The translations under genes and the position numbers were made by a program. Positions 1 through 38,928 of a stretch of DNA of 64,000 nucleotides are shown here, one piece after another. The stretch is from positions 16,820-80,819 of the IMG/VR virus record IMGVR_UViG_3300014348_000112. One strand, written 5' to 3'. Position 1 is the first letter of the stretch; each line of letters starts with the position of its first letter. Source of the DNA: a virus. The notes beneath the pieces were generated by a model. The model made no database searches and was not told the origin of the DNA. It saw nothing but the letters and a program-made list of their open reading frames with translations.

Positions 1-1308
1 CGGCACAAACTACGCAATCAAGCTGACTACGACTCCACCCCCGGCCAACTCGGCGCCATGCCTGCCGGCTCTCACGACGCCGTAGTCTCCTCACCCCCCT
101 ACGCCCAGGCCCGCATCGACGGCCACGGCGACGAGGGCGCGTCGGGGCTGCGTGCGCAGGACGGCAGCTACCTGCGCGGCCCGGACGGCTGGCAGCAGCG
201 CAAGGCAATGGGCGGGCGCTACGGCGATAGCGACGGGAACCTGGCCAATCTGCCGGCAGGGGAGCTGGCCGATGGGGTGGTGTCAAGCCCGCCCTACGCG
301 GAGACGGAGATCACCGGACGCCGCAACTTCGCCTCGCCGGCCAACCCCGGCGGCCAGGACGCCAACATCAACACCGCCGACCGGCAAGACGGCTACGGCA
401 GCACGCCGGGCAACCTGGGCGCGCTACGGGCCGGCGATTGGGATGCGGCCATCTCGTCGCCGCCCTACGCGGAGACCATCAACCAGACCGATGGCGCCAA
501 CGACGCCCAGGCCCGCGTGCAGCGCAAGGCCGCGGCCGGCGTAGACGTGACGCAACCGATCAACGTCGGCGGCCCCAACAGCGTCCTGAACCAGCCGCAA
601 AACTACGGCAGCACGCCGGGCAACCTGGGCGCGCTACGGGCCGGCGATTGGGATGCGACCATCTCGTCGCCGCCCTACGCGGACGGCGCGCAGCACACAG
701 GCGGCGAGACCCGCATGACCAGCGGGCAAGGCGGTCCGATCCAGTTCGTGGCCTACGGCTCATCGCCCGGCCAACTTGCCGACCTGCCAGCCGGCGACTT
801 CGACGCCTCGGTGGCCTCGCCGCCCTACGAGCAGCGCACCGTCCACGGCCAGGCCGGCGTGACACGGGAAGGCTTTGCTGACCCGGCGCGCGTCGGCAAA
901 ACAAGCGCTGCGCTGGTGTTGGACGACTACGGCGCCGACCCGGACAACCTGGGCAACAACACTGGCGAGACGTTCTGGTCTGCCGCGCGCACGATCCTGG
1001 AGGAGACCTTCGCCATCCTGAAGCCGGGCGGCTATGCAGCGTGGATCACTGGCGATTTTGTCCGCGACAAGAAGCGCGTCCTTTTCGGCGAACAGTGGCT
1101 GGCGCTGTGCGAGGCCGTCGGCTTCGAGCCGGTGCTGTGGGCGGTGGCCTGGAAGGCCGAGACGCACGGCCACCAGCTCGGCATCTTCGGAGAGCCGGTC
1201 GAGCTGAGGACCTCAAAAGTTTCGTTCTTTCGCCGGCTGGCCAACCGCAACAACCCGGACGCGGCGATTGAGAACGAGGATGTCCTGTTTGTTCGCAAGC
1301 CTTTATAG
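1..1308 (+). CDS. Amino-(N4C/N6A)-type DNA methyltransferase-like protein with five repeated SPPY motifs; 5'-truncated by the window
   Basis: Frame 1 is open from base 1 (RHKLRNQADYDSTPGQLGAMPAG...). Five (S/A)SPPY motif-IV units, then a typical post-motif-IV core (ILEETFAILKPGGYAAWITGD...EDVLFVRK). SAM-binding motif I is not visible. Confidence 0.72.
   Translation, partial: RHKLRNQADYDSTPGQLGAMPAGSHDAVVSSPPYAQARIDGHGDEGASGLRAQDGSYLRGPDGWQQRKAMGGRYGDSDGNLANLPAGELADGVVSSPPYAETEITGRRNFASPANPGGQDANINTADRQDGYGSTPGNLGALRAGDWDAAISSPPYAETINQTDGANDAQARVQRKAAAGVDVTQPINVGGPNSVLNQPQNYGSTPGNLGALRAGDWDATISSPPYADGAQHTGGETRMTSGQGGPIQFVAYGSSPGQLADLPAGDFDASVASPPYEQRTVHGQAGVTREGFADPARVGKTSAALVLDDYGADPDNLGNNTGETFWSAARTILEETFAILKPGGYAAWITGDFVRDKKRVLFGEQWLALCEAVGFEPVLWAVAWKAETHGHQLGIFGEPVELRTSKVSFFRRLANRNNPDAAIENEDVLFVRKPL
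393..683 (+). repeat. 81-bp intragenic direct repeat (393-473 / 603-683, 1 mismatch)
   Basis: ctacggcagcacgccgggcaacctgggcgcgctacgggccggcgattgggatgcg(g/a)ccatctcgtcgccgccctacgcgga occurs twice, 210 bp apart. Confidence 0.95.
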
Positions 1309-1360
1309 CCCGCAGCGACCAACACGGCCAAATCGCCGGTCGAGCAAGCCGCTACAGTAG

Positions 1361-1396
1361 CCCCCAGGGACGCCAGGACGGCCCAGGAGCGATTTT
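1361..1396 (+). repeat. 36-bp dispersed intergenic element, copy 1 (copy 2 inverted at 18797-18832)
   Basis: cccccagggacgccaggacg(g/a)cccaggagcgatttt, 35/36 identical to the reverse complement of 18797-18832. Confidence 0.9.
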
Positions 1397-1479
1397 ACCG
1401 CCATTTCGTGTGTATCCATCCAGCAGATCGCCAGAACGCCCATTCTGGCCCCGCTACAGCCAACCGAAAGGACCGCACC

Positions 1480-1716
1480 GTGACCACTGAAGCCCAACTG
1501 CGACTCGCCATTCGCCTGCGCGACGGCGGCGCCGCCCTCTACGACCTGGCCTACCTGGCCAGCCACAGCAGCATCCACCCCGACTATGGCCGGATCGCCT
1601 TCCGCATGAACGCCGAGGGCTGGGCCAGGCGCTCCGGCGACGAGGTAGTGGCCGAAGCTGCGGCCCGCTTCGCTGCGGAGCAGGCCGCGCTCGGTGCGAT
1701 GGACGGGCAGCCATGA
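1480..1716 (+). CDS. Hypothetical protein
   Basis: GTG start after an AAAGGA RBS; stop overlaps the next start. Confidence 0.6.
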   Translation: MTTEAQLRLAIRLRDGGAALYDLAYLASHSSIHPDYGRIAFRMNAEGWARRSGDEVVAEAAARFAAEQAALGAMDGQP

Positions 1717-2252
1717 CCACCATCATCGTCCGCCATCGCACCGACAAGCAGCCCACCGAGAGGCCCTACCTGCGGCGCTTCCAGCGCATCAGCTGCGCCA
1801 AGACGTACGGCTACCGCCCGCTCTGGTCGGCAGAGCGCGAACACGCGGCGGAGTTGGAGGCGCCAGCGGCCCGCGCGCTGCTGGCCTGGCTGCGCTCCTC
1901 CAAGTTCGGAGCCGGCTACGAGTACGAGTCGCCCGGCCTAGCCGAAGCGCCCGCCATCTCCCCGCGCGAACGGGAGATTACCCGCCGGCAACACCTGGTG
2001 CTGGAGGCGCTGGCTCAGTGGAGCGAGATCAACTCCGGCGCGCTGGCTGACCAGACCGGGCTGCCCCGCCGCGAGATCAGAACCATCTTGACCTACCTGA
2101 AAGACACCGGCGCAGCCGAGCGCGACGGCGATCTGTGGCACGGCCAATGGCGCGCCACGAAGTACGGCTACTGGCTGGTGGCACGCCGCCGGCTGGTGGC
2201 GCAGATCGCCGGCCGGCCCGGCTGGGTGGTGCAGGAGGCTCCCCGTGTTTGA
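1713..2252 (+). CDS. Hypothetical protein with a C-terminal winged-helix-like segment
   Basis: ATGA coupling; LVLEALAQWSEINSGALADQTGLPRREIRTILTYLKDTG resembles a wHTH. Confidence 0.6.
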   Translation: MTTIIVRHRTDKQPTERPYLRRFQRISCAKTYGYRPLWSAEREHAAELEAPAARALLAWLRSSKFGAGYEYESPGLAEAPAISPREREITRRQHLVLEALAQWSEINSGALADQTGLPRREIRTILTYLKDTGAAERDGDLWHGQWRATKYGYWLVARRRLVAQIAGRPGWVVQEAPRV

Positions 2253-2619
2253 GCACTGGCGCATGGCCCTCTTCGTGGCCGGCATGATCGTTCTGGCTCC
2301 CCTGCTCGCGCTGGGCCTGCTGCGGCTCGCGCACTTCCTGGCCATCAACGCCCTGGCCCGCCTCACTATGCGGCCTGGCGTGCGTTACGAGGGCTGGCGT
2401 TGGCGCCGGGTGCGCGCCTACGTCATCGACCGGGACCACGGCAAGTGCGTGCGCTGCGGCCGGCGCTACCGGCTGATGCACGTCCACCACCGGCTCCCCG
2501 TGGCGCGCGGCGGGTCGCACCAGACGTGGAACCTGGAGACGCGCTGCTACGAGTGCCACCGGGATGAGCACGCGTGGATGCCCGAAACTGGCCCATCAAA
2601 TAGCTTGACAATCCGGTGA
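2245..2619 (+). CDS. HNH endonuclease with an N-terminal hydrophobic (TM-like) segment
   Basis: RDHGKCVRCG...HVHHRLPVARGGSHQTWNLETRCYECH is a canonical HNH/Zn pattern. Confidence 0.85.
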   Translation: MFEHWRMALFVAGMIVLAPLLALGLLRLAHFLAINALARLTMRPGVRYEGWRWRRVRAYVIDRDHGKCVRCGRRYRLMHVHHRLPVARGGSHQTWNLETRCYECHRDEHAWMPETGPSNSLTIR

Positions 2620-2633
2620 TAATAGGTTATAAT
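2605..2633 (+). promoter_or_regulatory. Consensus sigma70-type promoter with CGGTGAT direct repeats
   Basis: TTGACA (2605-2610), 17-bp spacer, TATAAT (2628-2633); CGGTGAT at 2614-2620 and 2634-2640; ATG at 2644. Confidence 0.85.
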
Positions 2634-2643
2634 CGGTGATGCC

Positions 2644-2874
2644 ATGACAAATAGAAACCACCCCCCTGTCACACTCTCTATTCGGATGCCGCGCAACGTC
2701 TACGACGCCGTGGCCGCGCGGGCGCAGGCCGAGGATCGCTCGCTGAACTACGTGATCAACACGACTCTGGGCGCAGCGCTTGCCGGAGCAGGTGGACGAC
2801 CTGCTGAGACAACGAACGGTTCTCTTGCCGCGCCAGCTCAGCCAGCGCCTGGTGCAGATCGGCCGGCATCCTGA
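2644..2874 (+). CDS. Arc/MetJ-type ribbon-helix-helix DNA-binding protein
   Basis: VTLSIRMPRNVYDAVAARAQAEDRSLNYVINTTL matches the Arc RHH pattern. Confidence 0.75.
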   Translation: MTNRNHPPVTLSIRMPRNVYDAVAARAQAEDRSLNYVINTTLGAALAGAGGRPAETTNGSLAAPAQPAPGADRPAS

Positions 2875-2923
2875 CGCTCATCGTCACGGTCTCTTGAGAC
2901 TGGTCGAGTTTGGGTCTGGACAT
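2756..2923 (-). CDS. Arc-type ribbon-helix-helix protein, antisense to and overlapping the previous gene
   Basis: MSRPKLDQSQETVTMSVRMPADLHQALAELARQENRSLSQQVVHLLRQAL matches the Arc RHH pattern. Confidence 0.75.
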   Translation of the reverse strand: MSRPKLDQSQETVTMSVRMPADLHQALAELARQENRSLSQQVVHLLRQALRPESC

Positions 2924-2967
2924 AGCCCAAGTATAGCACCAAAACGGTGCGCGCACAAGAGTTTTTT

Positions 2968-3816
2968 ATGACGACTTACAAAATCGCCGTCAACCGTCAC
3001 CCCCTCGACCGAAAACTACCCCACGGCGACCCGTTCTGGCCGACCTTCAACGCGTCGTTTCAGAACCTGGAGCTGGAGCCGTTCGACCTGGGCCGGATGA
3101 TCTACGACGGCCACGCCATTACCACCTGGCACGGCAACAACTGGCGCCACTCCAAGAACTTCCTGCTCGGCCAGCACCTGGGGCTGGACTTCGACACCGA
3201 GGACAAGCGCAGCGCGCTGGCCACGCTGATGGCCGACAAGTTCATCGCCCGCTATGCGGCGCTGCTCTACACCACCCCCAGCCATACCCCAGAGAAACCT
3301 CGAACGCGCGTGATCTTCCTGTTGGACACCCCCATCCAGCAGGCCAAAAACTACGCCTTGGCTGCCCAGGCGCTCATCTGGTCGTTCGGCTCCGCCGACA
3401 GCGCCTGCAAAGACCCGGCCAGAAGCTGGTGGGGGTCCCTGCACTGTGAGATGGAGATACCCTACAAGGAACTGCCGCTGGATATGGTTAAGCGGCTGAT
3501 CGCCCAGCACCAGGAAGTTACGGCTAGGGAAAAGAGTAGCCGGCCGCGCGTGGCGCTAGACACGGCGGTCAACGACAAGTACATCACGGCCGCTCTGCGC
3601 AGCGAGGTGGAAGCAATGCTCGCTGCCCCCCAAGGCGCGCGCAACGCGACACTGAACCGGGCGGTCTTTAACCTGGGGCGCTTCGTCGCCAGCGGGGAAA
3701 TGTCGGAGACCGTGATCGAGGACGCGCTGGCTGATGCGGCACGCGCGGTCGGCCTGGAAGAGCAGGAGATAGTGGCCACCCTACGGAGCGCAATGAGAGC
3801 AGCGACAGGAACGTAA
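2968..3816 (+). CDS. AEP-like primase/polymerase with a C-terminal PriCT-like helical domain
   Basis: LGLDFD and YTTPSHTPEKPRTRVIF motifs; C-terminal GARNATLNRAVFNLGRFV; next to replication genes. Confidence 0.68.
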   Translation: MTTYKIAVNRHPLDRKLPHGDPFWPTFNASFQNLELEPFDLGRMIYDGHAITTWHGNNWRHSKNFLLGQHLGLDFDTEDKRSALATLMADKFIARYAALLYTTPSHTPEKPRTRVIFLLDTPIQQAKNYALAAQALIWSFGSADSACKDPARSWWGSLHCEMEIPYKELPLDMVKRLIAQHQEVTAREKSSRPRVALDTAVNDKYITAALRSEVEAMLAAPQGARNATLNRAVFNLGRFVASGEMSETVIEDALADAARAVGLEEQEIVATLRSAMRAATGT

Positions 3817-5410: not shown

Positions 5411-6469
5411 ATGAATCCCGACGTTGCGCAATTTGAAGCCCTTGGCAAGGAACTCCTGCGCCGCTGTCTCGCCGAGGAGGAGCCGGCCGACCTGCACGCT
5501 TGGGCGACACAGGCGCTGGCCCACATCGGCGGCACGACCGACGCCAGCGCGGTCTTGCGCTGGAAAGACAGCTTCACCTATTACGAGGAACTCTTGCGCC
5601 AGCGCGCCGCAATGGCCCTCCTGCCGCCTGATCAGCGCCGGCAGATCGACTGGCCCTGGGCCTCCTGGAACCGGCTGATCAGTCCCATGAAGCCGGGGAT
5701 GCTGGCCAGCATCTCTGCCCCGGACGGCGAGGGTAAGACCATCGTGGTTGAGTGCCTGGCAGAACATTGGGCGGCGCGCGGCCACCGGGTTGCCTTTGTC
5801 CACTACGAGTTGAACCGCGAACTGATGATGGATCGGCGCACCGCGCGCCATACGTCCATCGTTGTGCGAATGCTTGAGTCTGGTATGCTCACGCCAGAGC
5901 AAGAGGCAATTATTCAGGCCGTGCGCCCCCGACTTGAGGCGTGGGAGGGCGAGATCAACTACGTCCACACCCCCGGCTGGACGATGGAGCAGACTGTCGC
6001 CGAGCTACGCAGGCTGCGCGAGGAGGGCTTGTGCGACGTGGTGGTCATCGACTACCTGGAGAAAGCATTTGCCAGCGCGCGCCAACTCAAGATGTACGGC
6101 GCCAACTACTGGCTGCGTGAGGCCGACAACGTAGAGATGCTCAAGAGTTTCGCCGAGAGCGCCAAATTGCCGGTCATCATGGTGACGCAACTAAACAAGG
6201 CCGGCAAGACCATCGAGGCGGCCAAGATGGATCGCAGTGACATCGGTGGTTCCGGCGAGAAGTCCACCAAAGCAAATCTGGTGGTGCTACTGAAGCGCGA
6301 GACGAACGCCGACGGCAGCCGGTCCAACGTCGTCCGGGTGCGCATTGACAAGAACACAATGGGCGCGGACGGCGCCTTCGTGCAGTACATGCAGCCGGAG
6401 TTCTTCCGGCTGGCCGACATCCACGAGGCAGGCAACAACAACAATGGACGATCTCATACAGCGAATTGA
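5411..6469 (+). CDS. DnaB-like replicative helicase (SF4)
   Basis: Walker A ISAPDGEGKT, Walker B VVVIDYL, IMVTQLNK and VRIDKN motifs. Confidence 0.85.
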   Translation: MNPDVAQFEALGKELLRRCLAEEEPADLHAWATQALAHIGGTTDASAVLRWKDSFTYYEELLRQRAAMALLPPDQRRQIDWPWASWNRLISPMKPGMLASISAPDGEGKTIVVECLAEHWAARGHRVAFVHYELNRELMMDRRTARHTSIVVRMLESGMLTPEQEAIIQAVRPRLEAWEGEINYVHTPGWTMEQTVAELRRLREEGLCDVVVIDYLEKAFASARQLKMYGANYWLREADNVEMLKSFAESAKLPVIMVTQLNKAGKTIEAAKMDRSDIGGSGEKSTKANLVVLLKRETNADGSRSNVVRVRIDKNTMGADGAFVQYMQPEFFRLADIHEAGNNNNGRSHTAN

Positions 6470-12169: not shown

Positions 12170-13795
12170 GTGAAACGACTGGCCCTCCCCTTGACAATAG
12201 TCGCCGCCGGTTTGGCCGCGGCTTTTGTCGTAGGAAGTCTCGAACTCGTTGACCGCATCGACAGAGCGGTTGACCGGCGCTTCGGCGACTGGCTCTACGT
12301 AGCCGTCGTCGTGGTGCTGTTTGTCGCGTTCGCCGTCGTCGTCCTGAGCATCGCCGCAGCCGTTGCCGGTCGCGCGCTGGCCTGGTCTCGCCAAATCTCC
12401 CCCAACCGGCACGGCCTGTTTGCAATCTTCTTCCACCGCGGCCAGCCGCTCAATTTCAACGAGCCGGGCGCGCAATCCCTGTCGGCCCTATCGGCCCACA
12501 AGCGCCCCACCGCGCCGCTGGCCCAGCGCGTCATCGAGGCCAACTACCGCCTGCAACGGCCGGCCAACCTGCCTGAGCTGGCGCCCCCGCCTGACGCCCC
12601 GCCAGAGATCGACTACGCCGCGTCGCTGCCGCGCGAGGTCTCACTCTACTCGGCCCCCCTGCCGCGCGAGTTGTCGCTGCCGGTCGGTGTGGACGCCGCC
12701 GGCCGTCAGGTGGCCATCCCGCTGCGCAACCTGGGCAACGTTCTGATCGGCGGCCGGCCCGGCGGCGGCAAGTCCGAGCTGCTGGCCGGTTTCGTCGCCG
12801 GCCTGGCCCGCCAGGACGCCACCGGCGTGCGCGTCCAGATCGCCGTGGCCGACATGAAGCTGGTCTCGTTCGGGAACATTCCGCCCGACCTGTCGCTGCT
12901 GCGCTGGCCGGTCGCGGTGGACATGGCGCCGGCGCAGGAGTTGATCGAGCAGGTGCTGGAGGAAGTGCGCCGGCGCTACGCCCTGCTCCAGCAAGCCGGC
13001 GTGCGCTCCCTGGACGGCTACATCCAGCGCACCGGCGAGCCGCTGCCCCACCTAGTGACGATCATCGACGAGATTGCCGACCTGAGCGCGTCGCGCATCA
13101 GCCGGGCCTCGTTTGTGGAGGTCGCCAGCGAGATCGCCCGCAAGGGTCGCGCCGCCGGCGTCACCCTGGTCATGGCCACCCAGCGCCCCTCCTCCGACAC
13201 GCTGCCGGCCGACCTGCGCAACCTGGAAGGCGTGGCCGTCGCGTTCGCCGTCGAGCGCCCAGAGGACAGCCGCCTGATCCTGGGCCGGCGCGGCGCGGAG
13301 ATGCTGCCCGCCATCCCCGGCCGCTGCCTGGTGCGCATGGAGCGCGCCGTCGTCGCGCAAGCCTACCTGGCCGGCCTGGACGAAGCCGGCGGCCACTCCT
13401 CCTTCGACGCCTTCCTGGCCGGCCTGCCGCGCGCCGATGCGGTGCTGACGCCTGTACCGGCCCGTACCAGCATACCGATGCCCGCGCCGGCCCCGATACC
13501 GGCCCAAAACACGCCCAGCGCCGGTATACCGGCGTCTGTACCGCCGTTTCGTACCGATGAGCCAGAGGCTCCCTACACGCCGGAGCAGATCGCTCACATC
13601 GTCCGGTTGTATCGCGAGAGCGTCTCTGATCGTTACCCGAAAGGCAGCCTGAAGGCAGTTCAGCGGGCCATCTACCCCGACCAAGCGACTGGCGGCCACT
13701 GGTGGTATCGCATTCGCGATACAGTGCGCGAGGCGGGATATGACACCGCCCTGCCCACCACTCCCCGCCGGCACCGGCGCGTCGCGCGACAGTAG
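12170..13795 (+). CDS. FtsK/SpoIIIE-family ATPase with an N-terminal membrane anchor
   Basis: Walker A GGRPGGGKS, Walker B LVTIIDEIADL, RKGRAAGVTLVMATQRP; two N-terminal TM segments. Confidence 0.88.
   Translation: MKRLALPLTIVAAGLAAAFVVGSLELVDRIDRAVDRRFGDWLYVAVVVVLFVAFAVVVLSIAAAVAGRALAWSRQISPNRHGLFAIFFHRGQPLNFNEPGAQSLSALSAHKRPTAPLAQRVIEANYRLQRPANLPELAPPPDAPPEIDYAASLPREVSLYSAPLPRELSLPVGVDAAGRQVAIPLRNLGNVLIGGRPGGGKSELLAGFVAGLARQDATGVRVQIAVADMKLVSFGNIPPDLSLLRWPVAVDMAPAQELIEQVLEEVRRRYALLQQAGVRSLDGYIQRTGEPLPHLVTIIDEIADLSASRISRASFVEVASEIARKGRAAGVTLVMATQRPSSDTLPADLRNLEGVAVAFAVERPEDSRLILGRRGAEMLPAIPGRCLVRMERAVVAQAYLAGLDEAGGHSSFDAFLAGLPRADAVLTPVPARTSIPMPAPAPIPAQNTPSAGIPASVPPFRTDEPEAPYTPEQIAHIVRLYRESVSDRYPKGSLKAVQRAIYPDQATGGHWWYRIRDTVREAGYDTALPTTPRRHRRVARQ
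13713..13793 (+). repeat. 81-bp exact duplication of the FtsK-like gene 3' end (second copy 15605-15685)
   Basis: ttcgcgatacagtgcgcgaggcggg...gtcgcgcgacagt is identical at both loci. Confidence 0.95.
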
Positions 13796-20529: not shown

Positions 20530-23500
20530 CTATGGCGATGGGGTCAGCGTTGGAGTCGGGGCCGCCGCCCAGTAGGAATTGCCCAGGCCCATCGTGGGCC
20601 AGCGCTGCTCGATCCACGTCGGCGCGCCGTCGTACAGCCGCGCCAGGCAGTGGTCGGGATTGACCAGCTGCCAGGATAGCGTATCGACCGCCGTCCAGGG
20701 CGTTGTGTTGCCGTTGAACAGCGTCACCTCGCCGCGCTGGTTGGAGAGCGTCACGCCGTCCAGCTCCTGGTAGAACACCAACCGCTCGCCTGCGTCCAGT
20801 GTCCCGTTCAGCCGCACGCAACGATCCCGGCCGCACAGGCGCCAGCCGGTCACGTCCGTCGTGGCCCGCGCCAGCAGCTCGGTCGCGTTATCGTTGCCCA
20901 GCGTCCCGTCTGGGAACAGGTCGATGCCCTGCATGTTCGGGCAAATCTCGTTCAGCATCACCGCCGGCATGGACGATACCACCGTCGGCGTGGCCGTTGC
21001 GGTCGGCGTTCGTGTTGGCGTCGCGGTGGCGGTCCCGGTGGGCGCGCTGGTCGCCGTCGGCGTGCTCGTTGCCCCACCCGGCGTGTTGGACGGCACGACC
21101 GTCGGCGTTCGGGTTGGGGTAGGCGTCAATGTCGGCGTGTTGGTCGGGGTGGGCGTGGGCGTGCTCGAAGCCAGCGGCGTGGCCGTGGGGGAGGCCGTCC
21201 AGGTCGCGGTCGGCGTGCTGCCGGCGGCGCTGGCCGAAACGAGCAGGCTGGGCAGGTTGCCCGTCGAGTTGTTCTGCGTGTTGAGGTAATAATCGACGTT
21301 GCAGTACCCTGACGGGTTGGGCGTGCAGACCGGCTGTAGCTTGATGTTGAGACCCTGGTACGTCATCAGGTTGGTCACGTCGAAGGTCAGGCGCGAGCCT
21401 ACATCGGCGCTCGTGATCGGCACCGGCGTCCCGCATGTCCCCACGTCGTTGGCCCCGTAGGCGCCCGGCGTCTGCCAGGCTGAGCCGGCGGCGTAGCTGT
21501 TCCAGGTCGCGCCCGCCTCCGTCCAGGCCCGCTTGATCTGGCAGGGGATGACGTACATCGTCGCCGGCCCGCCGCTGTTGACGTAATAAGACAAGCCGGC
21601 AAAGCCGAAGGCCACGTCGGTGGGGAAGGTCAGGTCAACGTCCACCAGCCCCTGCTTGGCCGTGCTGGGCGCGTAGGTCGGCATCGGCGTGTTGCGCAGC
21701 GTCCCCGCCGACAGGTTGACGTACTGGTTGAAACCGTAGTTCGTGTCGCTCACCTGGCTGTTGATGTACGTGTCCTGCCAGTTATTGTTCGGCACAACGG
21801 TCTGCGCCCAGACGCTGCCGGCCGTCGGGGTGGCCGTCGGCGCAGCCGCGGTCGGCGTGGGCGGCGTGCCAGGCGTCCATGTGGGCGTGGGTGTGGGCGC
21901 GCCAGGATAGGTTGCGTCAACTTCCAGCTTCACCTTCTGAATGATCAGATTGCCGCCGCTGGTGCCGTCTCGCAGGTAGATGTCGCTCGCGCCGACCAGC
22001 GAGTTGGTGAGCGAGCAGGAAAGCTCAGTCTGCACCGTGACCCACTGCCCGGTGTTGGTCTTCGTAATCTCTGCGCTATCTGCTGAGCAACCGACTGTGA
22101 AGGAGGCCGTCCCCACGTCGGCATAGGTGGTGTAGACCTGCACCAGCGAAGAGCCGTAGAAGAAGTCGTCGCTGACCCGGAAATACATATAAGGGTTGCC
22201 TGCCGTGGTCTTGCGGGCGTAGCGATTGCGCGGGTCGCACGATGGCACGCTTTGCAGATCCTGGCCTGCACACGCGATTTGCGGGATGGCGTCGTAGGCC
22301 GGGGCCGTGACGCTGCCCGCAATCGCCGGCAGCGTGCTGGCCGGCAGGTTGCACGACTGGTTGGCCGGCCTCGACCCTTGCGTCATCACAAGCTCCAGGC
22401 CGCGCTCGAAGTTGCCGCACTTGGGCCGCCACGCAAACTGGCTCTCGCGCTGGTAGGAGACCACAAAGGGTAGCTCGTTGTCCTGTTTGTCGCCTAACTC
22501 CATGAATTCGGTCATGATCTCGGCCACCTGGGTGTTGGTGTACGGTACCCGGTAGGAGTAGATCGACCCCGGCACAGGCTCGAAATTGACCTTGAGGATG
22601 CTGATCCGGTTGGCGATGGCGTTGGCGACCGACCAGTACAACTGCTCTTCCAGATTGGTCTGGTTGGGCACTGGAGGGTTGTTGGGCGGGTTGGAGTTGC
22701 CGTAAGCCCAGCTATCCTGCGCCTCGGCCAGGCCGAAGCTCTCCGTCCCCATCAGTGGGAAGCCGTCATACTGGCCGTAGCGCCCGTTGGGCCAGTAGGA
22801 GTACCAGTCGTCGCCGTCGTCCAGCAGCTTGTTGTGGCTGATCCCCGCGCCGTTGGCGATGGCGTACCCGTTGATGCTCTCACGCACCCACGGTTCAAAA
22901 CTGTAGTTGGCCGTCATGACGACGAGGCGCTGCGTCGCGCCGGCTGCGGTAAACGCGTCCACCCATACGTCGATCACCGCCCTGATCGTCGCATCCCAGA
23001 TGCGCGCGCCGTCGTTGGTGGTGCAGCCCGTCGCCGCCGTGCAGATCGAGCCGGCGGCAAAGCCCAGGTGCGCCAGGTCGCCGGCATCTGCGTCCGTGTT
23101 CATCTGCGCCAGGTGGAAGACGTTCTCCTCGCTAACGGTGATGCCCAGCTCGCCAAAACGGCCAAAAGGTATCTCGACCCAATCCACGAGCCGACCCTGC
23201 GGGTCTTCTGAGAAATGCACAGCCGCCTCGCTAGCAAAGTCCTCCATCCACGCCAGATACTCAGCGCCCCAGAAGCGGGGGACGCGGTGATAGTCCGCGC
23301 CGCTGCCAAAAATCTTGTAGTAATAGACGCCCTCGTCGGCTGCCTCCAGATAGTCCGACGGCAGCCACACGTAGTCGTTGGGCGCCCACGTCCCGATCCC
23401 CCAGGAGATTGACGTAAAGCCCACGCCGATGTCGAAGCCGAACGTGTTCTTGGTTCGGTCGGCCCAGTTGTCGAAGCGGCCCCAACTGAACACCCCGGCT

Positions 23501-23739
23501 GTGGGGTTGATCTCGTTCATCTCGATGCGGTCAAAGCTGCCGGTCTTGAACTGCGCGTAGGAGGCTCCGTTGCTTGGCCGGTAGTCCTCGAACTCGTAGA
23601 AGCCAGCCGGCGCGCCTTCTGCCATGATCGAGACGCCATCCATTTTAGGCGGGATGGTATCGTCCGGCTCGCTCGCGCAGCGCGCCAGCAGCGCCACCGC
23701 CAGCAGCGCCAGCAGCAAAACAGGCAGCTTTCGTCTCAC
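20530..23739 (-). CDS. Large exported protein: glycoside-hydrolase-like N-terminal domain, DNRLRE-like domain, Pro/Thr linkers, lamin-tail-like C-terminus
   Basis: Signal peptide with Cys21; [21 protein letters not shown] resembles GH42/GH35-type starts; [15 protein letters not shown]; PTPT repeats; VMLNEICPN. Confidence 0.62.
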
Positions 23740-23924
23740 AATCCGCCTCCTATCGGCAGGTTCTTCAGCACCTCGATCAACTGCGCCACCTGCCGCCAGC
23801 GCATCGGCGCCACCATGATTTTACCCGTCTCGTCCGCCCACACCAGCGGCTGCACCCTGACCTGCTCAGGCGCTGTAGCCTCCGGCGCGCCGGTCTCATC
23901 TGTCGTCGTGTCTGTCTTCTTCAT
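23736..23924 (-). CDS. Small hypothetical protein
   Basis: GAGAGG RBS; stop overlaps the next GTG. Confidence 0.6.
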   Translation of the reverse strand: MKKTDTTTDETGAPEATAPEQVRVQPLVWADETGKIMVAPMRWRQVAQLIEVLKNLPIGGGL

Positions 23925-23935
23925 CGTTCTGCCTC

Positions 23936-26404
23936 TCATGCAGTGCTCTTGATAGCCCAGTTCGCGCCCAGCCGTCGAATCGTCACAGTCTGGTACTGAG
24001 CCGTCAGAATGTAGGACGCCGCGCCGTTGATGGTTGCCGCGCCGTCCGGCTCAATCGCAACCTCGTTCGCGCCGCTGTCGCTCTTGTGGAACGTATATTC
24101 CCAATTGCGTGGCTTGGAGGTTGCGGCTGGTAGATTGATCGTGATCTTGCCGCTCGTCGCGTCGCAGGTATAGAAACGCACGTTGCCGGCCGTCATGCCG
24201 CTGTCGCTGCTGTCCACCGCTTCCCAGCCGGTAGCATCGCCAGCCAGCGCAACCGGCACCCAATAGCCTCCATACCATATGTACACGCCAGCGCCAGCCC
24301 CCGGTTCGTAGGTGCCGTTGCTATGCAGCAGCCCGCCGTTCTGGATCGTCCCTCCTGGTATGGTTGCGGCAGTGTAGGGCATCGGGTAGATGATCTCGGC
24401 GCTCAGGTCAATGCGCGTGTGTGTGAACGGCGCCGTACCTTCCGCTCGATAGGCCCACAGGTCGATGTACGTCATTTGCTGGTTGGCCGTGTCGTAGCCG
24501 CCCACCGCGCGCACGCGGGCACTGGCCTGGTAGTCGCCCAGCGCGCTCAGCATGGCGCGCGCCCGCTTGCCGGTCAGCGGCTGCGCTTGCAGCAGCAGGA
24601 TGTGCTCCTCCGGCGTGCCGCCGTTGTTGATCGCGCTGATCCGGTGGCTAGAGTGATCGTCCGTGGGGCTGGTCCAGAAGGAAACCATCCGGCTCTCGCC
24701 GTACTCCTCGCCTGTCACCTCTGGGTCCTCCGACTCTGGGGTGAAGAACTGCAACCCCTCGGTCGTGTCCAGCCGGATCGCGCCGCTCGGAGACGCCAGC
24801 ATAGCCGTCCTGATGGCCCAGCCGCCCACACTCCCCTCGCCGGTGTAGACTTGGCCGGTGAAATGGCCGTCGCCGTTGTAGTCCAGGTAAACCACCGGCG
24901 TATCGCCGTTGAACAGGCCCACCCTGCCCAGCGCGCCGCGCTCGGTGCGAAAGTTGCGAAAGTCCGGGTCGCCGCGCATCATCGTGCCGGCCAGCCAGGT
25001 CTTCCACACGCCCGACCCTGGCCGGTTCTCCAGCGTCAGCGGCCCCCAGGCGTCCACCGCCGACAGGTATTGCGCGCCCAGCCCGTCCACCGAGTAGCCG
25101 GCTATGCCGCGGCTGGTGATCACGCCCCGCCGCTGTGGGTCGTCCGGGTCGGTGATGACGAACTGCCCGTCGCTCTCGAAAATCAGCGTCCCCTTGACCA
25201 CCGCCGACTCCATGATGACCGTGCCATCCATGATCAGCACGCCCGTCTCGTCGTCGTAGCTGACCGAGTTTGCCTGCGGTGGGGGGTTGCCGATGTAGGC
25301 ATGGACCCCGCCCGTCTCGGTATTGCGCAGCACCGCCTTGGCCACGCCGGCCTCGTTGCGCAGCGCAAACGTCGCCCGGTTGTTCACTTCGCCCAAGTCT
25401 ATCCTGGCGCCCATCGCGTCGCCGATAGTGAACAGGTCTCGCAGATAGCTGTGCTCTGGCGTGATCTCGATAATCGGGCTGGCCCCACGGTACACCCCCC
25501 AGCGCTCGTTTGTCCCGTCGAAGGTGTTGTGAACGCCCTCCAGCGGGCCGAAGTCGTAGTCGCCGGCCAGCCGCTCGTTTTCGTCCTTGCCAAAAATGCG
25601 CACGCGGTCTTTGCCGTCGGAATCAGCCACAACGATGTTTGTGTTGCGCAGCAGCAACTCCTCGCGCGTGGCCGAATACATCACATACGTGTCATAGTTG
25701 CTCAGGTCGCCGAACGCCATGCCAAACTCGTCCGTCGTCACGCCGGCCACCCCGTTCAGGTTGCCCAGACGGAAAACGCGCTCTTGTCTGGTGGGCGGGC
25801 TGTCGGTCCAGTAGGCCGCGGTCATGTTCGGCGCGGCGTTCGAGTTGGCGTGCCGGTTGTCAATCGAGATGTAGCCGATCTCGGTCAGGCCGTTGATCAG
25901 CGTCGATACGGCCCACCCCGTCACCAGGCCGGCCGGGCTGGTAAATACCCGCCGCGTCACCGGGTAGCGATAGCACACGCCCCCGCCGGGGCACGAGACC
26001 ACCGTCGCTGCCGCCGTCACCCGCATGAACTCGATCTGGCCGGCCGTGTCGCTCACCGCCGCCTGCTCGCCCACCGCAAAGATGTCATCGGCCACGGTGA
26101 TGAGTGTGCCGGTCGCGGTGAGCGCCGCGGTCAGGTGCGTTGAGTGGGTGAAAACCGTCCAGCCCGTGCGGGCGATGGTATCGGCCGCTTGCAAGTTGCC
26201 TATCGAAGACAGGGCAAGCTCCACGTCCTCTCCCAGCTCCTGCAACGCGTTCTCGACCTCCAGCGCGTCGAAATAGGCGCCGGTATCCACAATGGGTACA
26301 TCGACCGCCATTACCAGGCGCGACGAGGCGTGTACGCCAGGAGACGCCACTGCGGGGCTGGTGGGGATGCTATCAATGCGGCGGCGAAGATCAGCTTTTG
26401 GCAC
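23936..26404 (-). CDS. Minor tail protein / tail fibre-spike
   Basis: 822 aa, beta/Gly-rich, downstream of the tape measure; C-terminal DATSGKITINLPAA...IEPDGAATING resembles tail-tip domains. Confidence 0.72.
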   Translation of the reverse strand: MPKADLRRRIDSIPTSPAVASPGVHASSRLVMAVDVPIVDTGAYFDALEVENALQELGEDVELALSSIGNLQAADTIARTGWTVFTHSTHLTAALTATGTLITVADDIFAVGEQAAVSDTAGQIEFMRVTAAATVVSCPGGGVCYRYPVTRRVFTSPAGLVTGWAVSTLINGLTEIGYISIDNRHANSNAAPNMTAAYWTDSPPTRQERVFRLGNLNGVAGVTTDEFGMAFGDLSNYDTYVMYSATREELLLRNTNIVVADSDGKDRVRIFGKDENERLAGDYDFGPLEGVHNTFDGTNERWGVYRGASPIIEITPEHSYLRDLFTIGDAMGARIDLGEVNNRATFALRNEAGVAKAVLRNTETGGVHAYIGNPPPQANSVSYDDETGVLIMDGTVIMESAVVKGTLIFESDGQFVITDPDDPQRRGVITSRGIAGYSVDGLGAQYLSAVDAWGPLTLENRPGSGVWKTWLAGTMMRGDPDFRNFRTERGALGRVGLFNGDTPVVYLDYNGDGHFTGQVYTGEGSVGGWAIRTAMLASPSGAIRLDTTEGLQFFTPESEDPEVTGEEYGESRMVSFWTSPTDDHSSHRISAINNGGTPEEHILLLQAQPLTGKRARAMLSALGDYQASARVRAVGGYDTANQQMTYIDLWAYRAEGTAPFTHTRIDLSAEIIYPMPYTAATIPGGTIQNGGLLHSNGTYEPGAGAGVYIWYGGYWVPVALAGDATGWEAVDSSDSGMTAGNVRFYTCDATSGKITINLPAATSKPRNWEYTFHKSDSGANEVAIEPDGAATINGAASYILTAQYQTVTIRRLGANWAIKSTA

Positions 26405-27747
26405 TACGCCTCCTCATCCTCGATGGCATAAAGCGCTTCGCGTAGATGGTATTGGGTGCCCGGCCACAAGCCCTCGACGCTCTCCAGGTCTAACGCCAGC
26501 CAGCGCTCCGAGGCGTCCGGCATTCCCACGGTTTGCTCCTCGCCGCGGTTGTCGAAGACCAGCGTCACGTTGCGCCCGGCGTCGTTGCGGTAGTGCAGGT
26601 AGCGGTGCCGGCGCACGCCGTACAAGTCGGTGAAAATCGCTCCTGTGCTGGCCTCGCCCTCAGCCGTCACTGGGTTGATGTAGGCGGTCGTCGTCGCGCC
26701 TAGCGCCTCTAGGTTGTCCTTGATGGTTACAATCTGGCGGGTGCCGGGGCCAGGGTTGGCGTTGCCCCACGCGTAGTCACCGTGTTGCCAGGTCTCGAAG
26801 TTGGTCCAACCTGGCAGGGTCTCGACGGGCGCCGGAGCCTCATACAAATAGTCTAGCCGCAGCGAAACGACATCATCCTCTGTGGTGCTGCCCTGCGACG
26901 TGACGGTCAGCACGTACTCCTCGCCCGGCGTGAGCGTGCCAGGATATGTGTCGAGATCGACCAACCCCGACCACTCGCCGTTGTCAACCGACTGGTCGAA
27001 ATCCAGCCCTGGGCCGGCGGTGGTAGGCCGGCCAGTGCGCCGGTGCAGAATGCCCGTGCCGTTGATGCCGATGAAGGTCGAGACCCAGGGGTCGCCGCCG
27101 TCGTCGGCGGGGTGGTAGGGCGCCACCTGGAAGAAGCTGTAGGCCAGGTAGCGGCAGCGGTGGATCATCGTGCCGGCAAATTTGGTCTCCAAGTGTAGCG
27201 CGCCGGGGTTGGCTGGCCTGGCGCGCACTACCGGGAAGGTGGCCTGCGGTACGAGTAGCCTGTCTTCCAGTGCGACGGCGTAGGTGGACAGGGCTTGCCA
27301 CTGCGCCGCGCTCGGCGTTGTCCCGTCGGCGAAGCTGGCCAGCAGGGGACCAGCGATGGCCGCCTGGCTCTGGCACAGCTTGTTCACCCGCAGCGCGCCA
27401 GTGCCATCCTTGATCGAAACCTCGTAGAACTCGTTGACCGTCAGGCCCAGCGCAGTCAGGTTGAGGGTGCCGCTGTAGTTGCCGGCGCTGTTGAATGTCG
27501 CCCTCACGCTGTTGTTGACATACAGCCGCCAGGGGAACGTCCCGCCGCCCAGGGTAATGTCGTAGTCCAGGCTGTTGACTTTGTGGCGAAACGCGCCGTT
27601 GAACGGCTTGTCCACAAAGGCGCATCCAGGGATGGGCATCTGGTAGCCGAAGAAGGTGTCGCGCACGCCGTGAACGTAGCGTTGCAGTCCGTTGACGTGA
27701 AACGTTGCGCTGAGCACCTGGCCAGCGGTGAAAGTGGGTGCTGCCAT
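26404..27747 (-). CDS. Minor tail / baseplate protein
   Basis: Position in the tail module; MAAPTFTAGQVLSA start typical of tail proteins. Confidence 0.68.
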   Translation of the reverse strand: MAAPTFTAGQVLSATFHVNGLQRYVHGVRDTFFGYQMPIPGCAFVDKPFNGAFRHKVNSLDYDITLGGGTFPWRLYVNNSVRATFNSAGNYSGTLNLTALGLTVNEFYEVSIKDGTGALRVNKLCQSQAAIAGPLLASFADGTTPSAAQWQALSTYAVALEDRLLVPQATFPVVRARPANPGALHLETKFAGTMIHRCRYLAYSFFQVAPYHPADDGGDPWVSTFIGINGTGILHRRTGRPTTAGPGLDFDQSVDNGEWSGLVDLDTYPGTLTPGEEYVLTVTSQGSTTEDDVVSLRLDYLYEAPAPVETLPGWTNFETWQHGDYAWGNANPGPGTRQIVTIKDNLEALGATTTAYINPVTAEGEASTGAIFTDLYGVRRHRYLHYRNDAGRNVTLVFDNRGEEQTVGMPDASERWLALDLESVEGLWPGTQYHLREALYAIEDEEA

Positions 27748-27748
27748 A

Positions 27749-29347
27749 TTAGTACCAAAGCCTCCCGCGATCCGCGCCAGGCCCATCGCCCAACTCGGAC
27801 GTACCAATGATGAAGTAGTCGTCGTGCTCGCTCAGGTCGCCCAGCTCCATCAGACGCAGCGTTTGAATGTAGCCGCCGCCGCCCTCGTCGCCCCAGGTGA
27901 TGCCCACCACCAGCGCCTCGACCGGCGCCTGGCTGCCCTGGGTGCGGGTGTCCACGAAGCGCACCAGGTCGCCCAGCTCCAACTGCGGGATGCCCCACAC
28001 TTGGCGCAGCGTCCAGATCGGGCGCACCTGCCGGCAGCGCACGGCCAGCAGCTCGGCCAGCGCCGACCCCTGGGCCTTGGACTGCACGTAGATGTTGCCT
28101 TGCACCCGCTCGGACCAGGGTCCCTGGCCGGCCAGCGTGTTGGAGCGCAGCGTCCGCTGCCACGGGAACGGCAGCGGCGCAGGCGTGACGGTGACGGTGA
28201 TCTCCTCGCTGGGTCCGCCCACCAGCGGCTGGCCGCGCAGCCGCAAATAGGTCAGGCGCGCGGCCTGCGTCGCGTCGTTGTTGACGGCCTGCACCTCGAC
28301 GGCCTGGCCGTAGCTGTTGAGCAGGGTGATGGCCACGTTGTCGGTCACGTCGGCGCCGCCGGCGCTGGTGGCGTGGTAGTCGTTGTAGGGGTCTTCGGCG
28401 TCCGGCGCATATATCTCGATGGCGGCATAGTTGAAGCGCGCCTCCCAGGTGTCGGTCTCGCCTGGCATCAGCACGCGCAGCTCGTCCAGCGTGTACAGGT
28501 CGGTGTCCACCCCCTCGAAGCGCGGCGACCACTCGACCGTCACCTCGGTGGCTAACTGGCGCGCGTCGGTGTCCGGCTCGGACAGGGTGTAGCCGTCCTC
28601 CGCAAAGTCCCACACCACGGCCTGGCCGATGAAGTGCAGCGGATTCCAGTAGCGCAGGATGCCGCGCTGATCGAAGAGAGCCATGCCGCCATCGGCCTCG
28701 GCGGTCGTCCAAATCTCATCGACCGCGCCTTCCTTGTCCATCCAGACGAACGGGATGGGCAGCACGCCAACCTCCAGGCTCATCTCGCCGGCGGCGATGC
28801 CGGCCTCGTCGGCCACGGTCCCGATCCACTGGTGCGGCAGTTGGTCGCGCGAGACGGGCAGGCTAAGCCGGTTCTGCATATAAATCCAGCCCCAATCCCG
28901 CACCTGGAAAGAGACGACAAATTGCGCGGTCTCCTTCCAGCCGGACACCGCGCCGGTAAAGACACAGACGTACTCCGCCCCGTTGGCGGTGATGTAGCCG
29001 CGCCAGATGCGCACCGGCACGCCGATGGGGCCGGCTGGGCTGTTGGCCTGGCCGATGTGGGCATAGAGCGCGCTGGCCGGGTTTTGCCAGGAGAAGCGCC
29101 CCTCCCGGTTCCACAGGTCCAGCCGGCCGCTGCCCACCGAGCCGGCGGCAATCAGGCGCTCGCCGGGCGGGTTGATGGCCAGTTGCACCCGGTCAGCCTT
29201 GACCCACTGCGACTCGTTAGTCCAGCCGGTCGCGCCGCGCGCGTCGCCGATCTCGCCTGAGCGATCCCAGGAGAACTCGACGTACAGACAGGGGCGCTGG
29301 CCGTAGGCGGAACAGGCGGCGGTCAGTTGGGATGAAACGGTCTGCAT
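27749..29347 (-). CDS. Tail hub / baseplate (Tal-like) protein
   Basis: Second gene after the tape measure; VFTGAV...QVRDW and LELGDLV patterns. Confidence 0.68.
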   Translation of the reverse strand: MQTVSSQLTAACSAYGQRPCLYVEFSWDRSGEIGDARGATGWTNESQWVKADRVQLAINPPGERLIAAGSVGSGRLDLWNREGRFSWQNPASALYAHIGQANSPAGPIGVPVRIWRGYITANGAEYVCVFTGAVSGWKETAQFVVSFQVRDWGWIYMQNRLSLPVSRDQLPHQWIGTVADEAGIAAGEMSLEVGVLPIPFVWMDKEGAVDEIWTTAEADGGMALFDQRGILRYWNPLHFIGQAVVWDFAEDGYTLSEPDTDARQLATEVTVEWSPRFEGVDTDLYTLDELRVLMPGETDTWEARFNYAAIEIYAPDAEDPYNDYHATSAGGADVTDNVAITLLNSYGQAVEVQAVNNDATQAARLTYLRLRGQPLVGGPSEEITVTVTPAPLPFPWQRTLRSNTLAGQGPWSERVQGNIYVQSKAQGSALAELLAVRCRQVRPIWTLRQVWGIPQLELGDLVRFVDTRTQGSQAPVEALVVGITWGDEGGGGYIQTLRLMELGDLSEHDDYFIIGTSELGDGPGADRGRLWY

Positions 29348-29716
29348 CTATGCCTCGACGACGGTGAAGGAAACGTTGTAAAGCACGCGGCTTTGGTGCG
29401 GATCGTACCAGTGCGCCTCAGCCCAGCTCGCCAGATCTACAAACGCGGTGAGGGTCAGGCCGTTGGGGAAGACGATAGTGGTCGATGTGGCGATATAGCC
29501 GCCGTAAGCTGCCCAGACGGTAGCGCGCTCGGCTGCGGTCAGGCCCTTCCAGACCACGCGCACGCGCCACTTGTTGGCGACGTGCTGCACCCGATAGGTG
29601 GCGTCGGCGGTGCGGCCCGACACGCCAATCGGGAAATACTCCATCTGGATGCCGTCGTCCTGCGCCGGCAGCGGCATCGGCTGGCTGTTGAAGGTGAACG
29701 TGTAGCTGGCCGTCAT
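29348..29716 (-). CDS. Distal-tail-like protein
   Basis: 122 aa, immediately after the tape measure, ATGA coupling. Confidence 0.62.
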   Translation of the reverse strand: MTASYTFTFNSQPMPLPAQDDGIQMEYFPIGVSGRTADATYRVQHVANKWRVRVVWKGLTAAERATVWAAYGGYIATSTTIVFPNGLTLTAFVDLASWAEAHWYDPHQSRVLYNVSFTVVEA

Positions 29717-38117: not shown

Positions 38118-38928
38118 GGTGCGCCTCTCTTGTGTAGGTGAACGGGCAGGCGGCGCCCAGGCGGTCTTCGATTGAGACCCAGACCTCGTGCCAGAAGCGG
38201 TCGTTGACGTACTTGAGCGTGCTGCTGTCAGCGTAGTACGACAACTCGCTGACTTCGCCTGAGTAAACCTGGGGGAAATACCGGCGTCTCTGCTCGGTTT
38301 CCGCTTCTCTGATCATGCCGGCCAGGAGACGCCACTGGTCGTTGTCCAGCTTGCCGGACTTGTTGTGCATGATGTGGACATAATTAGCTGTCACGGCGCG
38401 TATCTCAGCCAGGCCCGTGCTAAACAGGGCCCGAGCGTCCGCTGGAGAAAGCGATGAGTCATACTGCGGGTGGTTGTGGGTCAGGGTTGCGCCAGGGAAC
38501 TGCGCAGTCTCAGAAAGAGACCAGTTAATGGAACTTGCGTCTCCTCGCTTGGTAAAAAGCAGCTTGCCGTCGGCGTTAAACACGGCGCCGATTTCCCATG
38601 TGGGAGCGAGGAGCCTTAGCTTTTTCTCAAAATTATCCAAAGCCATGTTTTCTTCAGCCTCTAAATCGGCGAGGCGCTGCAACTCTACTCGCCGTTGCCT
38701 TTGATCTTCTTCCGCCCTCCATATCGCCATCGCTTCTCTGTCATTCACCGCATTGGCGTAAGGATCGACGCTACCGCCTGCCCCATCCTTCGGCGCGAAC
38801 TGGCCGCCGCGCGGGTCGCCGGCTGGGTGGCGGTTGACGCGCGACTCGTCCCACGCCTTCTCTTGCGCGCGCCGCTCGATCCCGGCAAAGCCGAACGCAT
38901 CCCGCAGGTGGGCCAGTTGGTCGCTCAT
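38107..38928 (-). CDS. Tag-bearing JAB/MPN+ (JAMM) metallo-isopeptidase-like protein
   Basis: QEKAWDESRVNRHPAGDPRGGQF tag variant; WEIGAV...HNHPQYDSSLSPAD fits H-x-H-x7-S-x2-D. Confidence 0.75.
   Translation of the reverse strand: MSDQLAHLRDAFGFAGIERRAQEKAWDESRVNRHPAGDPRGGQFAPKDGAGGSVDPYANAVNDREAMAIWRAEEDQRQRRVELQRLADLEAEENMALDNFEKKLRLLAPTWEIGAVFNADGKLLFTKRGDASSINWSLSETAQFPGATLTHNHPQYDSSLSPADARALFSTGLAEIRAVTANYVHIMHNKSGKLDNDQWRLLAGMIREAETEQRRRYFPQVYSGEVSELSYYADSSTLKYVNDRFWHEVWVSIEDRLGAACPFTYTREAHRDS

Follow-up and report, generated by a model that had tools for sequence, protein, structure and literature searches.

Temperate phages of Bacillus carry C5-cytosine methyltransferases (M.SPRI, M.Phi3TI, M.Rho11sI and M.H2I) in which one core bears tandem, distinct and shuffleable modules, each of them responsible for one target specificity, with escape from several restriction systems as the presumed role (papers of Trautner, Walter and Noyer-Weidner, refs 86-87 of PMC7544214). 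In the DNA methyltransferase CcrM, the loop that carries the catalytic DPPY (loop-2B) continues to base-reading residues via the major groove, and R44 reads the G of GANTC (PMC13092597). Repetition of the catalytic motif IV itself in an amino-methyltransferase was not found described in the literature that we searched. Here we consider such a case, in a stretch of 64,000 nucleotides (nt), hereafter the window, that corresponds to bases 16820-80819 of the 101,006-bp virus record IMGVR_UViG_3300014348_000112. The product of the gene at its left edge (P0001) has six copies of motif IV, each followed by a different spacer, and it may be an orphan multispecific DNA amino-methyltransferase of a tailed phage in which any one of the six cassettes could complete the catalytic fold. 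We give this reading, which is inferred, a probability of about one half; the architecture, the family, the modular shuffling of spacers and the selection acting on them form the descriptive part of the analysis, in which we have high confidence.

Architecture and enzyme class

Frame +1 is open from the window edge to a TAG stop at 1306-1308, and this portion is the final 435 codons of a gene for a methyltransferase of 679 amino acids (aa). The full gene (L001:769-2808) begins with a GTG 732 nt upstream of the window, overlapping the stop of the preceding gene, and the N terminus of P0001 aligns with the starts of its homologues. The first-pass annotation, made from the window alone, had proposed an amino-methyltransferase with a tandemly repeated motif IV, on the understanding that a motif for binding S-adenosylmethionine (SAM) would be found upstream. 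The full-length gene and its profile matches support this proposal, and the motif is there: residues 27-65 (HPAKAP...DPFGGIGG) comprise motif X and the SAM-binding motif I (DPFGGIGG at 58-65). The suspicion that further units might lie upstream was also well founded, to the extent of one catalytic motif, as the beta3 strand (LLQGDSRRL) is followed by VVSSPPF, with its SPPF at residue 206, in the canonical place. Together with SPPY at residues 275, 340, 397, 467 and 517 this makes six catalytic motifs. Six exact SPP[YF] tetrapeptides with the same flanks in 679 aa are far beyond chance, and the architecture is shared by homologues.

Each motif belongs to a cassette that consists of a beta4-like strand, SPP[YF], a type-specific spacer of 25-45 aa and a closing YGxxPGxLG, and six such cassettes lie between an N-terminal core (N core) and a C-terminal core (C core). 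All five SPPY-ending units listed from the window alone were recovered, as was the terminal YGADPDNLGN that leads into the C core (coordinates in Table 1); the five spacers within the window are mutually unrelated. The C core has a match to phrog_12517 and a weak one to the start of the PF01555 profile. Tandem Repeats Finder reported no repeats in window 1-3000, because unrelated spacers separate the units.

To which class does the enzyme belong? PF01555 (N6_N4_Mtase) scores 37.4 bits in P0001 (cut-off 26.7) and 31.7-40.6 bits in single-cassette relatives, on motif X/I, which is the C-terminal end of the profile; only this end scores well, the motif IV-V end scoring weakly. Profile positions 160-218 map to the N terminus of P0001 and positions 2-61 lie near the last cassette, and both the FxGxG-type motif I and the (S/D/N)PP(Y/F/W) motif IV of PF01555 enzymes are present. 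With a family profile, the solved protein closest in sequence is TTHA0409 (2zie; E 2e-17), a beta-class DNA methyltransferase, followed by rotifer N4CMT, M1.HpyAVI, CcrM and M.PvuII. The match to 2zie comprises three segments (GD...SPPY; YEDTPGQLG with helix D and LxPGG; HPAxxP...DPFxGxG), the third of which comes first in P0001, so that the order is a circular permutation of that in 2zie. Motif I thus precedes every copy of motif IV, which is not the beta-class order, and the target recognition domain (TRD) that beta-class enzymes have between motifs VIII and X is absent. There is no room for one, because the chain starts just before motif X (about 25 aa) and ends just after motif VIII (about 25 aa beyond FFRRL); a single-cassette member of only 291 aa has no extra domain. 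The order I-then-IV is that of the gamma class (M.TaqI-like), but the C-terminal domain that follows motif VIII in that class is lacking. SPPY is the usual signature of N4-cytosine methyltransferases (PMC8885841), which makes m4C the likelier product, and N4-cytosine is probably the target of P0001. The C5-cytosine profile PF00145 had no match in the phage record. Weak Pfam matches to PEGA and Peripla_BP_4 within the array were at or below their cut-offs, fell on the repeat unit and were treated as spurious.

An insert of about 73 aa between beta2 and beta3 (residues 93-165; L001:1045-1263, upstream of the window) is lacking in most members of the family. It begins with a Cys-rich stretch (C-x7-C-x2-C) and is modelled by AlphaFold2 (AF2) as two long helices (105-127 and 133-152) with a predicted local distance difference test (pLDDT) score of about 78-90; a relative from run X2 has 275 other letters in its place.

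Cassettes as shuffled and selected modules

Counting the repeats in homologues, a check suggested in the first-pass annotation, established the cassette array as a family trait, with up to 11 motifs per protein. At least 913 clusters at 50% identity (E<=1e-30), mostly viral, came from an exhaustive search with a single-cassette member, and the near-length band by itself yielded more than 1,672 relatives in a word-indexed search. In 279 members of full length, the SPP[YFW] count is 0-10 per protein (the value of 11 comes from one further match), the commonest cassette number is 2-3 (3 among 106 representatives taken with no length filter) and protein length is about 279 + 57n residues for n cassettes. 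The family is carried by phages: viral sequences make up 76-95% of the nearest ESM-Atlas clusters, at least 133 loci were found in IMG/VR, and 185,579 prokaryotic species genomes (one genome per species) gave 10 loci, all of them in metagenome-assembled genomes. The family is large and apparently undescribed. P0001 had no tblastn match (E<=1e-5) among 50,697 GenBank phage records, a collection that thus offered no isolated phage for annotation.

When 1,093 spacers from 409 proteins were clustered (blastp-short, Louvain), 137 types with at least two members and 265 singletons were obtained. Two spacers of the same type scarcely ever occur within one protein (1 of 791 pairs, where label shuffles gave 15.8 +/- 3.9, with a minimum of 6 in 2000; in a first data set, 0 of 453 pairs, against 13.2 in shuffles), and both orders were seen for 23 of the 36 type pairs that co-occur in at least three proteins. 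Four of the six spacer types of P0001 are found elsewhere in first, internal and last cassettes, and two stand alone in single-cassette proteins. The type of spacer 0 (38 members) may be first, internal or last in other proteins; that of spacer 1 (37 members) includes the second spacer of P0014 and the sole spacers of single-cassette P0161 and P0283; that of spacer 3 (38 members) includes the first spacer of P0121; and that of spacer 4 (23 members) includes the sole spacer of single-cassette P0133. The type of spacer 2 is rare (two members), and that of spacer 5 (nine members) is mostly in the last cassette. Close relatives differ by whole cassettes: in the numbers of the first typing, P0001 is 4-3-50-2-6-9, P0002 is 51-3-2-6-9, P0003 is 10-3-x-6-9 and P0004 is 51-3-2-9.

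A change in unit number by recombination, as had been suggested for the window, is evident in these in-frame differences of whole cassettes. Compared with the gene for P0004 (L093), that for P0001 has two in-frame insertions, one of 171 nt (spacer 2 and unit 3, at about 307-477) and one of 150 nt (the spacer-4 cassette, at about 634-783), and the breakpoints fall within the conserved unit. Perfect direct repeats of 17 nt delimit the 171-nt block (Table 1), and P0004 is continuous at this site (...SSPPYAET joined to INQT). The identical join is present in contigs from two separate studies, one with a wastewater run of 2023 and one with an activated-sludge run of 2017; these contigs represent relatives 88-96% alike from separate populations. 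Contigs of X1, the probable source run, break inside the array, leaving parts of it uncovered, and have no bearing on heterogeneity within that population; short multi-piece matches of X2 and X9 contigs to about L001 1367-1786 resemble matches of other cassette orders to the conserved units. Units 3 and 4 are, as the first-pass annotation stated, identical at 80 of 81 nt (393-473 and 603-683; 99%), but its interpretation of a recent expansion does not hold as simple duplication: the two units flank unrelated spacers, which points to recombination or conversion in the conserved handle rather than to a duplicated unit-plus-spacer. The synonymous divergence (dS) between P0001 and P0004 is 0.21-0.29 in shared cassettes and 0.63-1.27 in the cores, which fits an exchange of cassettes more recent than the divergence of the cores. 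No spare cassettes were found elsewhere in the 101-kb genome (tblastn of three units, blastn of the 81-nt unit), and a pilin-like system of donor cassettes is therefore not supported.

The spacers are under purifying selection. Between P0001 and P0004 the ratio of nonsynonymous to synonymous divergence (dN/dS) is 0.36 and 0.17 in cassette blocks (0.17 for spacer 3) and 0.12-0.19 in the cores. The mean identity between spacers of one type is about 60%, even in proteins with core identities of only 20-50%, a figure inflated by the definition of the types through similarity. Spacer type is also closely tied to the aromatic residue of the SPPx that precedes it (mutual information 0.767 bit, compared with 0.124 +/- 0.014 in shuffles, none of 2000 reaching the observed value): one type is always with F (32 of 32) and others are always with Y (63 of 63). 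There is no such prediction of the SPPx that follows (0.188, compared with 0.159 in shuffles; 157 of 2000). From this, the functional and inherited unit is an SPPx plus the spacer after it.

How one core might use several cassettes

In the minimal enzymes of the family (285-300 aa), spacers are the sole variable part, and there is otherwise no TRD-like region. As they also occupy the position of loop-2B in CcrM, they are candidate target-recognition elements, and we consider it reasonably probable that the spacer is the specificity determinant; that DNA is the substrate seems very probable. How, then, might a single core make use of six catalytic strands? Each cassette would join a catalytic strand and loop to a small recognition loop of its own. 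Any one cassette could insert its strand between beta1 and beta5 and so bring its SPPx and loop to the one active site, and the remaining cassettes would loop out. A population of enzyme molecules would then methylate several motifs, shielding the phage from several restriction systems, and the conserved unit between spacers would act as a recombination handle for the gain, loss and exchange of cassettes between phages. Alternate use of cassettes by one core has, in our estimate, a little under an even chance of being right; the fuller proposal of alternate-frame folding, in which up to 11 tandem copies of strand, catalytic loop and recognition loop compete for one slot, to give conformers that have different DNA targets and are reprogrammed by cassette swaps, is put forward more tentatively still.

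Structure models bear on this in several ways. The single-cassette P0133 was modelled by AF2 (alignment A2) as a complete class I fold, with a pLDDT of 89.4 and a predicted template modelling score (pTM) of 0.87; a confident strand (128-133) precedes its SPPY and only the spacer is floppy. TRDs of beta-class enzymes are likewise disordered without DNA (PMC7544214). For the six-cassette P0001 (alignment A1), a check with AlphaFold that had been suggested as a way of finding the SPPY in the active site gave two confident cores, but residues 202-565, which include every SPPx, had pLDDT below 50 and the beta4 slot was left without any strand. The Atlas's own model of P0001 is similar (pTM 0.49). 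An array of low confidence fits competition between equivalent strands. Modelling of four separate chains (N core 1-197, C core 564-679, the internal cassette 383-455 and SAM) gave the cassette a score of 0.86, compared with 0.02 for the best of three controls, with at least 59% contact agreement between runs and a partner pLDDT of at least 45; 58 of 80 solved complexes attained the mark used, as did 2 of 110 mismatched pairs, counts that are only roughly valid here because a custom alignment and a ligand went into the modelling. In this model, the core is contacted by the trailing YG motif, and residues 392-396 pair on one side with 54-58 (beta1, the motif I strand) and on the other with 589-592 (beta5). 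The result indicates that an internal cassette is compatible with the slot, rather than proving its use, and it may reflect likeness only, because the pieces come from one chain with a familiar fold.

Of the meanings that the first-pass annotation had offered for the repeats, a swapping of alternative active-site loops is thus the favoured one, on the strength of spacer typing, non-redundancy within proteins, the coupling of SPPx and spacer and the complementation in silico, though its standing is that of an interpretation of sequences and models. Several points weigh against it. We know of no natural enzymatic precedent for alternative interior strands being inserted into one Rossmann-like sheet. 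Looped-out cassettes carry an entropic cost, and loops of 25-45 aa are small for a TRD. The low confidence of the array could come instead from a muddled alignment of repeats, the coupling of SPPx to spacer is in part the plain physical linkage of neighbours, and the inflation of identity within types has been mentioned above. As to the substrate, the best fold matches obtained with Foldseek and VIA-align are tRNA m2G methyltransferases, Trm14 (Z 20.7, rmsd 2.4 Å, 178 aligned), TrmN and aTrm11 (range of Z for the three, 19.4-20.7), and PF01170 is above its cut-off in P0001 (27.4 compared with 22.3 bits).

Foremost among other explanations is a fixed active site, in which only a single cassette (the first or last, for example) is ever catalytic and the others serve as accessory loops, for DNA binding or regulation, whose SPPY-like shape is retained for such purposes as holding flipped bases or docking DNA. 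The canonical flanks of the first SPPF (beta3 before it) and the last SPPY (helix D after it), the failure of AF2 to pick any internal cassette in the intact chain and the nearly constant last place of one spacer type (type 20 of the set of 137) all speak for it. Nevertheless, at the strand positions ahead of SPPx and at the catalytic positions, conservation is as high in internal units as in the first and last; when units were located by their YG motif, 434 had xPP[YFWH] and 29 were variant (94% of internal units being intact). Moreover, degenerate motifs, in a list that includes some false positives, differ in place from protein to protein, being first, internal or last (first in P0168, last in P0130), so no place in the array is uniquely protected. 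Since, in addition, most spacer types can stand at any place, or alone in single-cassette enzymes, and every type keeps its own SPPx aromatic, we regard a fixed site as unlikely, though it deserves to be taken seriously. A good deal less probable is the use of spare cassettes in trans, whereby, through domain swapping, they would occupy the beta4 slot in an adjacent chain to give an oligomer or a chain of cores: beta-class methyltransferases are obligate dimers with division of labour (PMC7544214), and a separate cassette fragment was modelled as docking into the split core (subject to the same one-chain caveat), but single-cassette members exist and fold in AF2 as complete monomers.

Alternate use of cassettes on DNA has also to be weighed against an RNA (m2G-type) or protein methyltransferase of the Trm11/Trm14/RlmKL kind, whose cassettes would read different substrates. 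The fold matches and the PF01170 score, with which the labelling of some relatives as Trm11 or RsmD by JGI agrees, are the grounds for retaining an RNA substrate as a rival of minor weight. Both fold aligners, however, work along the order of the chain and hence favour enzymes with motif I before motif IV; they listed only class I methyltransferases of the same order, and because permuted beta-class DNA enzymes were not listed, these searches do not settle the choice between DNA and RNA. The best sequence matches, on the other hand, are all beta-class DNA methyltransferases (HPAxxP and YxDTPGQLG being shared with 2zie), PF01170 is below its cut-off in P0133 (15.4 compared with 22.3 bits), a Pfam search of P0001 gave no match to THUMP or any other RNA-binding domain, and a phage family that shuffles more than 100 cassette types fits an arms race with restriction systems; we therefore think an RNA or protein substrate improbable. 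Least probable is a neutral expansion, the tolerated insertions of the first-pass annotation, in which the array would be a functionless disordered linker that grows and shrinks by slippage. Its low predicted order, the near-identical 81-nt repeats and the in-frame indels might be expected of such a linker, but not spacer types that are conserved, as much as the core, across cores only 20-50% identical, nor cassette dN/dS values of 0.17-0.36, nor the near-absence of repeated types within a protein, nor the retention of an exact catalytic tetrapeptide in 94% of internal units.

Genomic setting and comparison with known systems

Table 1. Parts of the methyltransferase gene and other features of the phage (positions are those of the window unless given as residues of P0001 or with an L or G prefix)
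Feature	Position	Strand	Details
Methyltransferase, 5' 732 nt	L001:769-1500		upstream of window; N core, cassette 0, most of spacer 0
Methyltransferase, 3' part	1..1308	+	residues 245-679 and stop
N core	residues 1-197		motifs X/I/II/III
Cassette 0	residues 198-209		beta4 and SPPF
Spacer 0, end	1..27	+	whole spacer is residues 210-253
Unit 1	28..102	+	YDSTPGQLG closing cassette 0, short linker, beta4-like strand and SPPY opening cassette 1
Spacer 1	103..219	+	39 aa
Unit 2	220..297	+	YGDSDGNL ... SSPPY
Direct repeat, left copy	289..305	+	perfect, 17 nt, CCGCCCTACGCGGAGAC; codes for PPYAET
Spacer 2	298..393	+	32 aa
Unit 3	394..468	+	
Direct repeat, right copy	460..476	+	identical 17 nt, CCGCCCTACGCGGAGAC
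Spacer 3	469..603	+	45 aa
Unit 4	604..678	+	
Spacer 4	679..753	+	25 aa
Unit 5	754..828	+	YGSSPGQL ... ASPPY
Spacer 5	829..927	+	33 aa
Terminal YGADPDNLGN	928..957	+	closes last cassette, leads into helix D
C core (residues 564-679)	958..1305	+	helix D, ILKPGG/beta5, beta6-7 with FFRRL; pLDDT >88
HNH protein	2245-2619		
Primase-like protein	2947-3816		
DnaB helicase	5411-6469		
FtsK-like ATPase	12170-13795		
Further methyltransferase gene	G000:C1:3532-4722	-	outside window
Further methyltransferase gene	G000:C1:88372-89490	+	outside window
DUF3102 protein, this phage	L098:1119-2090		about 325 aa; upstream of window
DUF3102 protein, P0003-encoding phage	L091:1609-2598		about 325 aa
Small ribbon-helix-helix gene	2644-2874	+	3' end overlaps that of next gene
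Small ribbon-helix-helix gene	2756-2956	-	convergent with preceding gene
Very large open reading frames	20530-33240	-	1069, 822, 467, 532 and 1175 aa
Aminotransferase	38925-40130	-	phrog_3139, E 1e-38
911-aa protein	45456-48191	-	two glycosyltransferase-like regions
Portal or minor-head-like protein	57100-59004	-	

The gene lies in a replication module, with an HNH protein, a primase-like protein, a DnaB helicase and an FtsK-like ATPase downstream (Table 1), and no nuclease partner beyond the small HNH protein was found in its flanks. Two further methyltransferase genes, one a conventional PF01555 member (55.2 bits) and one PF02384 N6_Mtase-like (34.2 bits), bring the number in this 101-kb phage to three. 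These findings fit an anti-restriction role. Upstream of the methyltransferase gene is one for a DUF3102 protein, which in L091 comes directly before a small upstream open reading frame and in this phage is separated from it by about 1 kb of uncalled DNA; its presence both here and in the phage that encodes P0003 indicates a conserved neighbourhood.

Other features of the phage may be mentioned briefly. Two small convergent genes with overlapping 3' ends encode ribbon-helix-helix proteins, one Arc-like (22.9 bits, compared with a cut-off of 20.4) and the other RHH_5 (29 compared with 26). The aminotransferase and the 911-aa protein with glycosyltransferase-like regions, whose neighbours are otherwise without a PHROG match, may be parts of a sugar-modification module. 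The very large open reading frames have almost no PHROG match, and the phage stands well apart from those described so far; one protein is portal-like or minor-head-like, and the window yielded no tRNA. The record ends in 13 bases (GCTTGTGTGACAT) that are also its first 13, so that the assembly, which IMG/VR calls linear, may be circular or circularly permuted.

If the favoured reading is correct, a single gene would explain how uncultured phages of wastewater and sediment evade many restriction systems, and more than 100 conserved loop types would make up a catalogue linking short peptide loops to DNA motifs, of use in the prediction and engineering of methyltransferase specificity. Among known enzymes, TTHA0409 (2zie/2zif/2zig), M.PvuII (1boo), N4CMT (8s9n) and M1.HpyAVI (5hek) share with the family HPAxxP, DPFxGxG, GD...SPPY, YxDTPGQLG and helix D with LxPGG. 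The order of motifs is X-I-II-III-IV-V-VIII in P0001, whereas it is IV-VIII-TRD-X-I-III in the beta class. Between SPPY and YxDTPGQLG, 2zie has five residues where the P0001 family has a typed loop of 25-45 aa, and, unlike in 2zie, the unit of strand, motif and loop is repeated 1-11 times. CcrM (6pbd), a sequence relative in the motif X/I region, is like P0001 in where its base-reading loop is placed; it differs in having one loop and no cassette array, the beta-class order and an extra C-terminal DNA-binding domain. The enzymes Trm11, Trm14 and TrmN (PF01170) share the linear motif order and a [DN]PP[YF]-type motif IV and are the best fold matches, but they have only one motif IV and carry an RNA-binding domain (THUMP or another), and their sequence similarity is weaker than that of the DNA methyltransferases.

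It is with the multispecific C5 enzymes of Bacillus phages that P0001 shares the combination of one core with tandem exchangeable modules, in its case of six spacer types. Those enzymes have a PC motif and a single catalytic loop, and repetition is confined to their TRDs, which lie between motifs VIII and IX. In P0001, by contrast, every module brings a further copy of an interior strand and of the catalytic tetrapeptide, an arrangement that would call for alternate completion of the fold. Were this to prove so, the family would be the amino-methyltransferase counterpart of the multispecific C5 enzymes, arrived at by the structurally unusual means of mutually exclusive insertion of an interior strand.

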